Source: a virus (lineage: Duplodnaviria; Heunggongvirae; Uroviricota; Caudoviricetes). From it: DNA of 19,954 nucleotides. The stretch's first letter is position 1. The number at the start of each line of letters is the position of its first letter. The notes under the pieces were generated by a model. The model ran no database searches, was not told the origin of the DNA, and saw nothing but the letters and a program-made list of their open reading frames with translations. Shown one piece after another: positions 8,722 through 16,079 of this stretch. The translations under genes and the position numbers were made by a program. The stretch spans positions 1 through 19,954 of the IMG/VR virus record IMGVR_UViG_2671180903_000004; one strand, written 5' to 3'.

Positions 8722-9408
8722 ATGACCCCAATAAAAATATTTATGACTATTGCTGATTTCAAACGGCCTAAATTGGAACTCCCAAACGGGGCAAACAAAC
8801 TACTACTGCACTCTTGCTGTGCTCCATGTTCCGGTGAAGTGATGGAGGCGCTTCAGGCCTCGGGAATCGACTACACCATCTTTTTCTACAACCCGAACAT
8901 TCATCCTCAGAAAGAGTATTTAATTCGTAAGGATGAAAATATTCGCTTTGCTGAACAACACGGCGTGCCGTTTATCGATGCTGATTACGACACCGACAAC
9001 TGGTTTGAACGTGCCAAAGGAATGGAATGGGAGCCTGAGAGGGGGATCCGTTGTACCATGTGTTTTGACATGCGTTTTGAGCGGACAGCGTTGTACGCTG
9101 CTGAAAATGGTTTCAGTGTGATCAGTAGTTCACTGGGCATTTCACGCTGGAAAAATATGCAGCAGGTTAACGAGTGTGGGCGGCGAGCTGTTGCGCATTA
9201 TCCGGGTATGGTGTACTGGGATTATAACTGGCGCAAGCAGGGCGGCTCGTCCCGTATGATTGAAATCAGCAAGCGCGAAAAATTCTATCAGCAGGAATAT
9301 TGTGGCTGTGTGTATTCTCTGCGCGATACCAATCTACACCGCAAATCTCAGGGACGCCCTCTTATCAAAATTGGCCAACTCCACTACGGAAAAGAAGAGA
9401 AGGAGTGA
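8722..9408 (+). CDS. queH: QueH-like protein (DUF208, epoxyqueuosine reductase family), tentative
   Basis: Motif [11 protein letters not shown] near the N-terminus plus further Cys pairs (CTMC, CGC), length 228 aa, consistent with recalled DUF208/QueH features. Alternative start at 8743; neither has a strong SD. Own ~150-bp upstream intergenic region. Confidence 0.6.
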
Positions 9409-9439: not shown

Positions 9440-9645
9440 ATTGGCGAGGTGACGTGAGTTAAGTAGAATGGCTGCGGGTGCTTGAGGCTATCTGTCTCAG
9501 GCATGAACACTGAAAGGCAGACAGAGAAAAGCCCCAGTTAACATTACGCGTCCTGCAAGACGCTTAACATTAATCTGAGGCCCAATCTATGTCTCACAAA
9601 TGTAGGTTAGCCTCTTACGTGCCGAAAGGCAAGGAGAAGCAGGCT
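9440..9645 (+). promoter_or_regulatory. hok-type mRNA leader with expected antisense (sok-like) region
   Basis: Long untranslated leader upstream of hok; GGCGAGGTG at ~9446 is partly complementary to the 3' CACCTC element, as in hok mRNA 5'/3' pairing. Antisense RNA not directly identified. Confidence 0.4.
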
Positions 9646-9801
9646 ATGAAGCAGCAAAAGGCGATGTTAATCGCCCTGATCGTCATCTGTATTACCGTCG
9701 TAGTGACGGCACTGGTAACGAGGAAAGACCTCTGCGAGGTACGAATCCGAACCGGCCAGACGGAGGTCGCTGTCTTCGTAGCCTACGAATCTGAGAAGTA
9801 A
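9646..9801 (+). CDS. hok: Hok/Gef-family type I toxin (51 aa)
   Basis: MKQQKAMLIALIVICITVVVTALVTRKDLCEVRIRTGQTEVAVFVAYESEK matches the Hok/Gef family closely; AAGGAG SD 9 nt upstream. Confidence 0.85.
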   Translation: MKQQKAMLIALIVICITVVVTALVTRKDLCEVRIRTGQTEVAVFVAYESEK

Positions 9802-9808
9802 GAAACCA

Positions 9809-9830
9809 GGCGAGGGAGAAATCCCTCGCC
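9809..9830 (+). other. Stable hairpin at the 3' end of the hok transcript (fold-back element)
   Basis: GGCGAGGG (9809-9816) pairs with CCCTCGCC (9823-9830), 6-nt loop; 8 nt after the hok stop. Confidence 0.5.
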
Positions 9831-9905
9831 ACCTCTGATGTGTCAGGCATCCTCAACGCACCTGAGATAAAATCTATTTGGCTGTTTCTGGGTTCGAACT
9901 GATGA

Positions 9906-10259
9906 TTATTTAGTGCTAATACATGATTTAATTCCCTGAATCCTCTTGCTTTTCCCATTGGTGGGGTCTAAGACCCCTCGAAGGGAATAAAAATCAATGA
10001 TAGTAGAACCATCTGCCAACTTATAAATGTCGGCATTATCTGCAACCGCTAATACGCTGTAATACTTGCCAATTTTTTGAGACGTGATAGTGGCTAAGAG
10101 AGGTGTACGCTGCCACTCACTGAGAATGCATTCTTGTATTTCTTGTGGTGGAGAATTTGTTTTGAACGAGATAATAACATTTTGTTCTTCTCTGTAGTTA
10201 TAAGGGTTGACGCATCCTGAAATTGCAAAAACCAATAGAAAACAAATTGTTCTATTCAT
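9906..10259 (-). CDS. Putative lipoprotein (117 aa), AT-rich cargo gene
   Basis: Signal peptide with lipobox FAISGC, Val at +2; markedly AT-rich gene and flanks; convergent with hok and on the opposite strand to the surrounding nin-like genes. Confidence 0.65.
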   Translation of the reverse strand: MNRTICFLLVFAISGCVNPYNYREEQNVIISFKTNSPPQEIQECILSEWQRTPLLATITSQKIGKYYSVLAVADNADIYKLADGSTIIDFYSLRGVLDPTNGKSKRIQGIKSCISTK

Positions 10260-10320
10260 TTAGAAGCCCTTTTATAAGTATTTCTTGGTTATTTAAGTTT
10301 TTTGTTAGTGAAAATATAAA

Positions 10321-10620
10321 CTATAAAAAGTCAGATTCATAACTTTGCCCTCCATGGTAAATGCCAGCGATAAAGACTTTATTGCCATCAACGGCAAAAG
10401 CAATAATCGTTCTGTGGCGGAAGTGAGTTACTCGCATTCCCTGGCGAATATCATCGCGTTTATTGCCCCGATGTGGGAATGTAGAAAACCCATCAAGATA
10501 ATCAAGAAGCGCATTGGCATAATTGTCAGCAATGACGCTTCCTGCTTTCTCCGTTATATATCCGTGCAGGTTTATTATCTGCTGTTCGGCCTCGGGGGTA
10601 ATGATGACTTCAAATGTCAT
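10321..10620 (-). CDS. parE: ParE/RelE-superfamily toxin (99 aa)
   Basis: Starts 5 nt after the antitoxin stop; C-terminal RVTHFRHRTIIAFAVDGNKVFIAGIYHGG resembles ParE; typical size. Confidence 0.75.
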   Translation of the reverse strand: MTFEVIITPEAEQQIINLHGYITEKAGSVIADNYANALLDYLDGFSTFPHRGNKRDDIRQGMRVTHFRHRTIIAFAVDGNKVFIAGIYHGGQSYESDFL

Positions 10621-10625
10621 GCAGA

Positions 10626-10883
10626 TTACTTCCCGGATCGAATCGCGGCGCGAACCTGTGAAATGGAGCGTCCGTTGTTTGGATTTTCGCGGATAGAATC
10701 AAGAGAGGGGGCGGCTGAATGCGTTAACCACGCTTCGATTGCTTTATCGCGCTCATTCAGTGCGCGAAGCCCTTCACGAATGACCTCGCTTTCTGAAGCA
10801 TAGGCACCGGAAGCCACACGGGCGCGCACCATGTCAGCCATCTCGTTAGTTAATGTAATGCTGAATTGTTGGGTTGTACGCAT
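10626..10883 (-). CDS. parD: ParD-family (RHH) antitoxin (85 aa)
   Basis: Internal ATG at 10883..10881 with GAGGT SD 6 nt upstream; motif ITLTNEMADMVRARVASGAYASESEVIREGLRAL resembles ParD/CopG antitoxins. Confidence 0.75.
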   Translation of the reverse strand: MRTTQQFSITLTNEMADMVRARVASGAYASESEVIREGLRALNERDKAIEAWLTHSAAPSLDSIRENPNNGRSISQVRAAIRSGK

Positions 10884-11018
10884 GGTAAACCTCACGGAGT
10901 AGGATAGAACACTATTCGATGATAGCACGCTGCCTGTTGACGACAACAGAAATCAGAGACAATATTGCCGCACGCCAGCTTGAACAACTGGCACCTGCTG
11001 CGCCAGCAGAGAAAACAG

Positions 11019-15483: not shown

Positions 15484-15819
15484 TTATGGACTTTGTTGTT
15501 TTAGCCCATAAGGACATATTTGCAGAGTGCAACGGTTATTAAAGCATTCATTCAATACGTTATCTGTATTTGTAGGGCATTCCTGGCTGTTTTTGATTAA
15601 ATTCCAGAATGTTTTATTGAATGGTACTACGTTGTAAATGGTTACAGGTAGCACTTTGTTATTGAGCATGATGCCTGTGTGAGTCAGTGTAAATATACTT
15701 TCAGGAGGTAAGAAAGCATCCGATTGATACCAGATTATTAATTTTATTTTACTCCATATGACTGAAAAAGATATTCCGCATGATGGCTGGATAACTGTAT
15801 CAATCACAATCCACTTCAT
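15484..15819 (-). CDS. Hypothetical protein (111 aa), AT-rich reverse-oriented cargo at the stx-equivalent position
   Basis: ATG at 15819..15817 with AAGGAAA SD; gene and flanks are clearly AT-rich versus neighbours; minus-strand -35-like TTTACA with imperfect -10 candidates upstream (plus 15858-15886); no recognisable family. Confidence 0.35.
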
Positions 15820-16079
15820 TTGGTTTCCTTGTTTATGCATTGCTGGTGATGTTCTGAAAAGTATAAATGATATTTTTGAATGTAAACCATAGAGCAGAAT
15901 TATTTTTCTGATGTTGTTTATTGTTTATTTAAATGCAGGGTGGTTTATATCTCGTCTTGTAGTTTATCCATGCATATCTGCTTGATGATGAGGTTTTTAT
16001 TTAAGGTATGGTTTTGTGTTTTTTCTGTATTACATGTCAGGTATTTTAAAGAATCATTTTTCAGATGGTGGAAAGAACC

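Follow-up and report, generated by a model that had tools for sequence, protein, structure and literature searches.

Several phage lipoproteins are known that close the host envelope to other phages. Llp of T5 (PDB 8A60 and 7QJF) is a periplasm-facing outer-membrane (OM) lipoprotein that binds FhuA and remodels its external loops (PMC9586334), and Rtp45 of phage Rtp (PDB 9RPS), likewise an OM lipoprotein facing the periplasm, binds LptDE and remodels external loops there (PMC12685063). Lpp021 and Lpp010 of the mEpimmI phages exclude phages that depend on OmpA or LamB (PMC11893012). Cor, carried by φ80, N15, T1, HK022 and mEp167, is a prophage OM lipoprotein that excludes FhuA-dependent phages. 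Such lipoproteins give a lysogen an inexpensive first defense at its envelope that helps to shape which phages can infect it, and they bear on host range in phage therapy and on competition between prophages. Few families have been characterized (Cor, Llp, Rtp45 and the mEp Lpp proteins) and all consist of tiny proteins. Here we analyze a gene at positions 9906–10259 (minus strand) of IMG/VR record IMGVR_UViG_2671180903_000004, a 19,954-nt stretch of Caudoviricetes DNA referred to below, at its full length, as the window. The gene belongs to a small, uncharacterized, phage-borne lipoprotein family and very probably encodes a functional lipoprotein of the OM type, carried as a moron. Uncharacterized lipoprotein morons in prophages are unsurprising in themselves, but we regard this family, spread over two orders of Gammaproteobacteria, as a clearly delimited candidate for yet another mode of exclusion, one that probably has a different target.

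The gene and its family

The open reading frame (ORF) starts with ATG, has its stop codon inside the coordinates given above and encodes 117 residues; an earlier note, made from the sequence of the window, had placed a 117-residue moron lipoprotein at exactly these coordinates. It is a real gene and not a chance ORF, because it has homologs in several genera, a low ratio of non-synonymous to synonymous substitution rates (dN/dS) and a lipobox that is found family-wide. A Shine–Dalgarno sequence, AAGGG, can be read at 10267–10271 (minus strand), 7 nt before the ATG, and the divergent allele of Escherichia coli strain GF60 has AGAGG, though the spacer around it differs.

The protein matches PHROG 914, a family of unknown function, with residues 1–114 aligned to profile positions 1–118 of 118 (E = 2.8e-27). 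A word-indexed search of 5.8 billion proteins returned 12 homolog clusters of 113–117 residues from Escherichia, Rahnella, Pantoea and Serratia. With a profile run exhaustively against 1.84 billion representatives, 40 homologs were obtained at E < 0.001, nearly all of 111–125 residues, and a second profile search added members from Pseudomonas, Rhodanobacter and Bordetella. Collections were scanned with an alignment (A1) that reaches only the Enterobacterales clade, the wide alignment (A2) having no usable conserved stretch. Scans of the window protein against Pfam (E ≤ 0.1), NCBIfam and PADLOC (PADLOC-DB 2.0, E ≤ 1) matched no family, nor did any of 34 relatives match Pfam at E ≤ 0.01. A tblastn search of 50,697 GenBank phage records gave nothing at E ≤ 1e-5, and a literature search by protein accessions or PHROG number found nothing. 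The family occurs in prophages and IMG/VR contigs, with no member among the isolated phages of that GenBank set, and most carriers belong to environmental or plant-associated genera (Rahnella, Pantoea, Serratia fonticola and Pseudomonas). By the Nei–Gojobori method, dN/dS is 0.08 between two E. coli alleles at a dS of 0.76, falling to 0.06 in the mature part, and seven other pairs within the family give values of 0.09–0.31.

The lipoprotein assignment combines a PROSITE-type lipobox rule with conservation across the family. The rule calls for a basic n-region, a hydrophobic h-region and the pattern [LVI][ASTVI][GAS]C, with the cysteine ∼15–35 residues from the start. At the N-terminus of the window protein (MNRTICFLLVFAISGC, followed by Val), a basic n-region and a hydrophobic h-region lead into the lipobox I-S-G-C at residues 13–16 (10212–10223, minus strand), with the codon of Cys16 at 10212–10214 and Val at position +2. 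The putative signal peptide comprises residues 1–15 (MNRTICFLLVFAISG; 10215–10259, minus strand), and cleavage by signal peptidase II before Cys16 would leave a mature protein, Cys16–Lys117, of ∼11.5 kDa with a computed pI of 8.5. Among 87 family-sized proteins, the rule holds for 86 and the sole exception still has LVGC; Gly15 and Cys16 are invariant in alignment A1, and Cys16 remains so in A2. The residue at +2 is Ala in 48 members, Val in 17, Ser in 11, Met in five, Thr in three and Gln and Asn in one each, and Asp in none. Asp at this position is the Lol avoidance signal in Enterobacterales, a rule that is less strict in Pseudomonas. Judged from its sequence, the window protein thus has the features of a bacterial lipoprotein with non-Asp +2 sorting. 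The clear lipobox, the Val at +2 and the OM-type sorting residue that had been claimed for it are all borne out at this level.

Three columns, Cys16, Cys44 and Cys113, are the only invariant ones among 34 distant representatives, and in 84 of 86 members the mature part contains exactly two cysteines besides Cys16. An AlphaFold2 model built from a 13-sequence alignment (mean pLDDT 82.7, pTM 0.76, core >90) has the topology β-α-β-β-β-β-α. It places Cys44 (codon 10128–10130, minus strand) in a helix spanning residues 38–51 and Cys113 (codon 9921–9923, minus strand) in the C-terminal helix, residues 102–114. The invariant cysteine pattern fits an exported lipoprotein with one structural disulfide, for which Cys44 and Cys113 are the putative partners. 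The family protein also has a short tether with a conserved NPYxYRE motif. The nearest solved fold is that of the Francisella lipoprotein Flpp3, a weak match; KA1/helix-grip matches are also among the fold search results, and a sequence profile search of the PDB returned only noise (E ∼0.7).

A cassette downstream of parDE in E. coli

In E. coli the gene lies in the nin region, just downstream of the toxin–antitoxin genes parDE. Every E. coli copy (the window and loci L001, L010 and L025–L029) begins 61 nt after the end of parE and shares its strand, with no terminator between the two genes. The lipoprotein gene is present in seven of 5426 complete E. coli genomes, always as a 'hypothetical protein' between hokD and parE, whereas parDE are present in 365, of which 358 lack the lipoprotein gene. 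Homology between the window and the parDE-only prophages breaks exactly at the parE stop codon. The base composition changes as well: in a sliding window, GC content drops to 0.32–0.38 over ∼9900–10500, compared with ∼0.50 in both flanks, in agreement with the sharply AT-rich patch described earlier. The ORF has a GC content of 0.373, or 0.349 when taken together with the AT-rich 61-nt spacer that separates its start from the parE stop (10260–10320, minus strand) and forms part of the inserted cassette; the corresponding values are 0.488 for the window, 0.478 for parDE and 0.519 for hok. These sequence comparisons identify the gene as a cassette inserted downstream of parE. We call it a moron because it is present or absent between conserved neighbors, deviates in GC content (0.37 versus 0.49) and has its own terminator, and the use of that term in the earlier note is therefore justified by the distribution of the gene, the position of the break and its composition.

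The organization of the region suggests how the gene may be expressed. The toxin gene parE (10321–10620, minus strand; Pfam PF05016, E = 2.4e-9; PHROG 5232) is immediately upstream of the lipoprotein gene and is preceded by the antitoxin gene parD (10626–10883, minus strand) in its 85-residue form (TIGR02606, E = 2.9e-14; RefSeq annotation of the identical protein). A consensus scan finds a promoter-like site, TTGTCG-16-TG-TATCAT, upstream of parD at 10919–10946 (minus strand); it is a pattern match only, and the same site is present in parDE-only prophages. A pattern scan of the spacer 10260–10320 found no consensus promoter or terminator. An intrinsic terminator hairpin of 9 bp, seven of them G-C, with a T-rich tail is located at 9809–9830 (minus strand), 76 nt past the lipoprotein stop. 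No other terminator was found on the minus strand from the promoter-like site of parD as far as hok; the hairpin, which faces the end of hok, is conserved between alleles. Since the genes share a strand and no terminator separates parE from the lipoprotein gene, read-through from the parDE promoter is probable, and co-transcription of the lipoprotein gene with parDE in the lysogen is likely.

The gene has also stayed intact in prophages that are decaying. The ORF, the Shine–Dalgarno sequence and the terminator are intact in all E. coli copies, and the hok–lipoprotein–parDE block is intact in both degraded E. coli prophages, those of strains 214-4 and GF60. An intact gene in a decaying prophage suggests a benefit to the host and not to virion production. 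The damage in the prophage of strain 214-4 (L001, 8877–11696) consists of an IS150 insertion, frameshifts in a nucleoid-associated gene and in a capsid gene, and truncated fiber genes; that of strain GF60 (L053, 11033–22619) has IS21 inside J and IS66 in the fiber region.

On the other side of the terminator is hok, encoding a type I toxin of the Hok/Gef type (9589–9801, with a 51-residue form starting at 9646), which is transcribed toward the lipoprotein gene; between the two, the hairpin at 9809–9830 may terminate both transcripts. The parDE-only prophages (L011, ∼2400–2440, minus strand) have a hairpin of their own, GATCCCGAC...GTCGGGATC followed by TTTTTT, ∼90 nt past parE, which was missed by the terminator scan on account of its long loop. 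This arrangement suggests that parDE normally end in their own terminator and that the lipoprotein cassette has replaced it in the window.

The window as a whole is a lambdoid prophage with a Stx-phage-type backbone. Its gene order is cI and cro, ydaT-like, O-like, DnaC-like, DUF1627, DUF977, QueH, hok, the lipoprotein gene, parE–parD, DUF968, rusA, Q-like, a DNA methylase, three tRNAs, nanS-p, DUF826, holin and lysozyme. The epoxyqueuosine reductase QueH (8722–9408; Pfam, E = 1.1e-65), just upstream of hok, is kept in the window and in strain GF60, and in strain 214-4 IS150 and other genes stand in its place. The segment 14943–16064, with Q, the methylase, three tRNAs (Met, Arg and Arg) and nanS-p, has the layout of Stx-converting phages. 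No stxAB is found between the tRNAs and nanS-p, where there is only an unannotated minus-strand ORF of 118 residues (15484–15840) with no Pfam match. The window copy is one accessory gene in a stx-less prophage of the Stx-phage type and has no evident clinical significance.

Tail-module slots outside E. coli

Outside E. coli, the family is found in the tail modules of lambda-like siphoviruses, co-oriented with the tail genes and in at least seven slots. These were collected from context look-ups in Rahnella, Pantoea, Serratia and Pseudomonas and from an IMG/VR scan that gave 19 contigs. The slots lie (i) between the tail assembly chaperone and the tape measure gene (TAC|TMP), in Serratia; (ii) between the tape measure gene and M; (iii) between M and L, in Rahnella and others; (iv) between K and I, in Pseudomonas; (v) between J and the fiber gene; (vi) directly behind a cor gene or a gene for a TonB C-terminal domain (TonB_C), before the fiber gene and (vii) after the last fiber or assembly gene at the prophage end, in Pantoea and many IMG/VR contigs. 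By pattern matching alone, a GC-rich hairpin and T-run follow the stop codon in all four homolog contexts inspected (L002, L005, L007 and L019), and promoter-like sites precede the homologs of L002 and L007 but not those of L019 or L005.

In L019, L020 and L048 the upstream neighbor is a true cor, its product 58% identical to φ80 Cor (E = 3e-36), and the φ80 layout J–gp22–gp23–cor–terminator–fiber is reproduced with one added gene, the lipoprotein gene, which stands where a terminator closes the cor unit in φ80. In all, cor and the lipoprotein gene occur together in about ten loci. This points to a stacking of several accessory genes that act on the envelope, close to the fiber genes. Homologs of cor are themselves frequent in lambda-like prophages outside E. 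coli and in IMG/VR contigs, often sharing a prophage with the lipoprotein family; those recorded here (L019, 7694–7930; L020, L032, L033, L035, L040–L044 and L048) are 47–58% identical to φ80 Cor.

The TonB_C genes mentioned above encode exported proteins of ∼95 residues, each essentially a TonB C-terminal domain on its own (L002, 16795–17082; L005, 8247–8531; L045, 5658–5915; Pfam E = 1.9e-10 and 1.2e-9). In lambda-like prophages of the Rahnella and Pantoea types they are found behind J/gp22/gp23, precisely in the Cor slot. A lipobox (LLSGC) is present in the copy from Rahnella, and that from Pantoea starts with a Sec-type signal peptide. A TonB C-terminal domain in the periplasm could be a dominant-negative decoy acting against TonB-dependent receptors, and hence against the phages and colicins that use them; we found no earlier account of such a protein, although no search aimed at one was made.

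Distant relatives outside phages are chromosomal or lie on islands, one of them in an integrase island. On a Bordetella chromosome (L018, 8001–9211), the gene for the most distant member runs with its stop codon into the start of a gene for an M23 peptidase (Peptidase_M23_N and Peptidase_M23), a neighborhood that may point to a function in peptidoglycan for the branch outside phages. On a Pseudomonas-like contig, the neighbors of a family member include SPOR-domain proteins. In Pseudomonas sp. S36 (L054, 4225–7363), a member is located ∼470 nt downstream of genes for the hemophore HphA and for Slam, the surface lipoprotein assembly modulator. This last neighborhood raises the possibility that some members are surface-exposed; for the window protein, surface exposure has no support for or against.

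Proposed function and alternative explanations

The sequence and the predicted fold outline a possible path for the protein. The precursor would be exported by Sec, receive diacylglycerol on Cys16, be cleaved by signal peptidase II and be N-acylated. A C44–C113 disulfide made by DsbA, with one cysteine in each helix, would lock the compact β-α-β4-α domain of ∼100 residues, and the short tether with its NPYxYRE motif would keep this domain near the membrane. By analogy, and from genomic association too, the domain could then bind the periplasmic side of an OM protein or machine and block adsorption or DNA delivery of incoming phages, and it may also spare progeny from the debris of lysed cells. 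The models for such a step are the action of Llp on FhuA and of Rtp45 on LptDE, the exclusion of FhuA-dependent phages by Cor and that of OmpA- or LamB-dependent phages by the mEp Lpp proteins. In the lysogen, transcription from the autoregulated parDE promoter would probably read through into the window copy.

Phage exclusion at the envelope is the function that we rank first, because the family recurs by cor and fiber genes, because the gene keeps its integrity in decaying prophages and because experiments provide precedents, with non-homologous lipoproteins encoded at comparable positions (PMC11893012, PMC12685063, PMC9586334). As an assignment made by analogy and genomic association it is tentative, and we give it somewhat less than an even chance. 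The earlier suggestion of an exclusion or surface factor gains from the homologs that occupy the slots of exclusion lipoproteins, some of them directly behind cor, and its exclusion part is a plausible hypothesis by analogy. Since the family so often accompanies a true cor, its target is probably other than that of Cor.

A number of points weigh against exclusion. The mature protein is globular and, at ∼11.5 kDa, large compared with the ∼6 kDa of the structurally known exclusion lipoproteins, and neither in sequence nor in fold does it resemble Llp, Cor, Bor, the mEp Lpp family or the PADLOC models. Location in a tail module is not specific, as λ lom and other conversion genes are found there too, and in about ten loci Cor is already present, which would make exclusion at the receptor of the phage itself superfluous. 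The E. coli copy is unlinked to tail genes, the two host prophages compared, too small a sample for a conclusion, differ in their J C-termini (n = 2) and a consensus scan of the window finds no convincing promoter of its own. Selection is strongly purifying and not diversifying, which is unusual for an arms-race interface. Finally, the relatives furthest removed lie on chromosomes or islands, near M23 peptidase, SPOR proteins or Slam/HphA.

A lysogenic-conversion factor that acts on the envelope without blocking phage entry, in the manner of Bor/Iss or Flpp3 (serum or complement resistance, stress tolerance or virulence), would fit a protein of this type, but we consider it unlikely. None of the 34 members matches PF06291 or DUF3568, although the Bor control was detected, and the Flpp3 match is weak and concerns a generic fold. 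Serum resistance would be of no use to most carriers, which are environmental or plant-associated, and the recurrent position by cor and fiber genes would be left unexplained. The KA1/helix-grip fold matches and the peptidoglycan-related neighbors of distant members point instead to a periplasmic binder or inhibitor, either an immunity-like lipoprotein directed against a peptidoglycan hydrolase (tail-associated or secreted), a type VI secretion system effector or a colicin, or a lipid-binding, helix-grip/KA1-like module that alters OM lipid handling. This is quite improbable in our estimate. Only two or three distant loci supply the neighborhood evidence, which may have arisen by chance, and K is the neighbor in just one slot out of seven or more. 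No Pfam match to known lysozyme-inhibitor or immunity families is found, and with ∼100 residues the domain falls short of the size of true START/Bet v 1 cavities.

Two further explanations concern the E. coli copies. Their constant position, 61 nt behind parE on the same strand with no intervening terminator, would be expected of a third, accessory component of the ParDE toxin–antitoxin module, but the distribution of the gene led us to reject this as barely credible: 358 of the 365 E. coli genomes with parDE lack it, homology ends at the parE stop and no parDE are found near the family outside E. coli. Moreover, the protein is predicted to be exported, whereas ParE acts on gyrase, in the cytoplasm. 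The gene could also be a silent or decaying passenger in E. coli, given that it is rare (7/5426 genomes), is carried in degraded prophages, has no strong promoter of its own and is made of AT-rich DNA that H-NS might silence. A dN/dS of 0.08 between E. coli alleles as far apart as dS 0.76, the integrity of the ORF and its signals in every copy and the strong conservation across the family make this very improbable. Two other candidates were rejected. A structural tail protein or assembly factor is not expected to be exported and lipidated, as this protein is predicted to be, and the gene varies in slot and is absent from most related tails. An o-spanin (Rz1-like) would be in the lysis cassette; here holin and lysozyme are at 18.5–19.8 kb, and the protein has a folded domain of 100 residues.

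Exclusion at the envelope, the reading we prefer, can be carried further, to a proposal that we consider doubtful. The family could represent a new structural class, in which a disulfide-locked, KA1/Flpp3-like domain of ∼100 residues in the inner leaflet of the OM binds a conserved OM machine other than the target of Cor (candidates are LptDE, BamA, OmpA, LamB or a TonB-dependent transporter) and provides heterotypic exclusion. Stacked with Cor and the TonB_C decoy, it would form a 'receptor-shielding' array by the fiber genes of temperate siphoviruses of Enterobacterales and Pseudomonas. Should the family prove not to be an exclusion factor, it would still be among the more mobile tail-module morons, and its study would define a function for PHROG 914.

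Comparison with known systems

Direct comparison separates the family from the lipoproteins that it might be expected to resemble. Family HMMs scored <10 bits against each of φ80 Cor, λ Bor and mEp021 Lpp, and hhalign of the family profile with T5 Llp, φ80 Cor and λ Bor aligned the signal peptide only, over 21–27 columns (21 for Cor). Because the positive controls were detected (λ Bor by PF06291, 1.9e-30; mEp021 gp81 by PF24052, 5.6e-31; Llp present in the PDB set), these negatives are meaningful and homology to Cor, Llp, Bor and mEp021 Lpp can be rejected, in keeping with the earlier remark that the protein resembles none of the Cor, Llp or Bor types. No sequence or fold similarity of the window protein to Llp (8A60_B and 7QJF) was found. 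No chain of Rtp45 is among the results of the PDB sequence or fold searches, in sets whose inclusion of 9RPS was not confirmed, and no direct comparison with it was made. In sequence and fold, the protein is unrelated to the characterized exclusion lipoproteins that were compared, Rtp45 not being compared directly.

The likeness to Bor/Iss, the λ serum-resistance system, is that of a lambdoid moron for an OM lipoprotein of ∼100 residues expressed in the lysogen; unlike the window gene, however, bor adjoins the lysis genes, and the PF06291 match that characterizes its product is absent from the window protein and its relatives. Flpp3 (DUF3568; PDB 6PNY and 2MU4), an OM lipoprotein of Francisella tularensis, is 14% identical and the window protein has no Pfam match to DUF3568. 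It is chromosomal and not phage-borne, and the likeness lies in a common α+β two-layer topology that is also seen in eukaryotic KA1 domains. HK97 gp15 reportedly blocks DNA entry, and its gene is a moron that separates the genes for tail assembly chaperone and tape measure (Cumby et al. 2012, J Bacteriol). The Serratia homologs occupy this same slot as tail-module morons with their own terminator; gp15 is an inner-membrane protein and no lipoprotein.

The exclusion lipoproteins offer closer parallels. Lpp021 and Lpp010 are likewise encoded by temperate coliphage lipoprotein genes inside the structural and tail cluster, where several unrelated sequence types occur, but mEp021 Lpp has 72 residues and matches PF24052 ('Phage_lipoprotein'), a match missing from the window protein and 33 relatives. 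With Llp and Rtp45 the window protein shares its predicted compartment and the proposed role of a lipid-anchored periplasmic binder of an OM component, and encoding near receptor-binding genes is a further likeness that applies to its homologs but not to the window copy. Cor, too, is a small phage lipoprotein with a lipobox, a residue other than Asp at +2 and conserved cysteines within the mature protein, and homologs of the window copy, though not that copy itself, use the same slot from J/gp22/gp23 to the side tail fiber, closed by a terminator as in φ80. The differences are size (77 versus 117 residues), homology limited to the signal peptide, the nin-region location of the window copy and the frequent presence of cor in the same prophage as the lipoprotein gene, so that the two are not alternatives. 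By these analogies it is plausible that the family is, by function, a further exclusion-type lipoprotein and, by sequence and fold, a lineage apart from those characterized so far.

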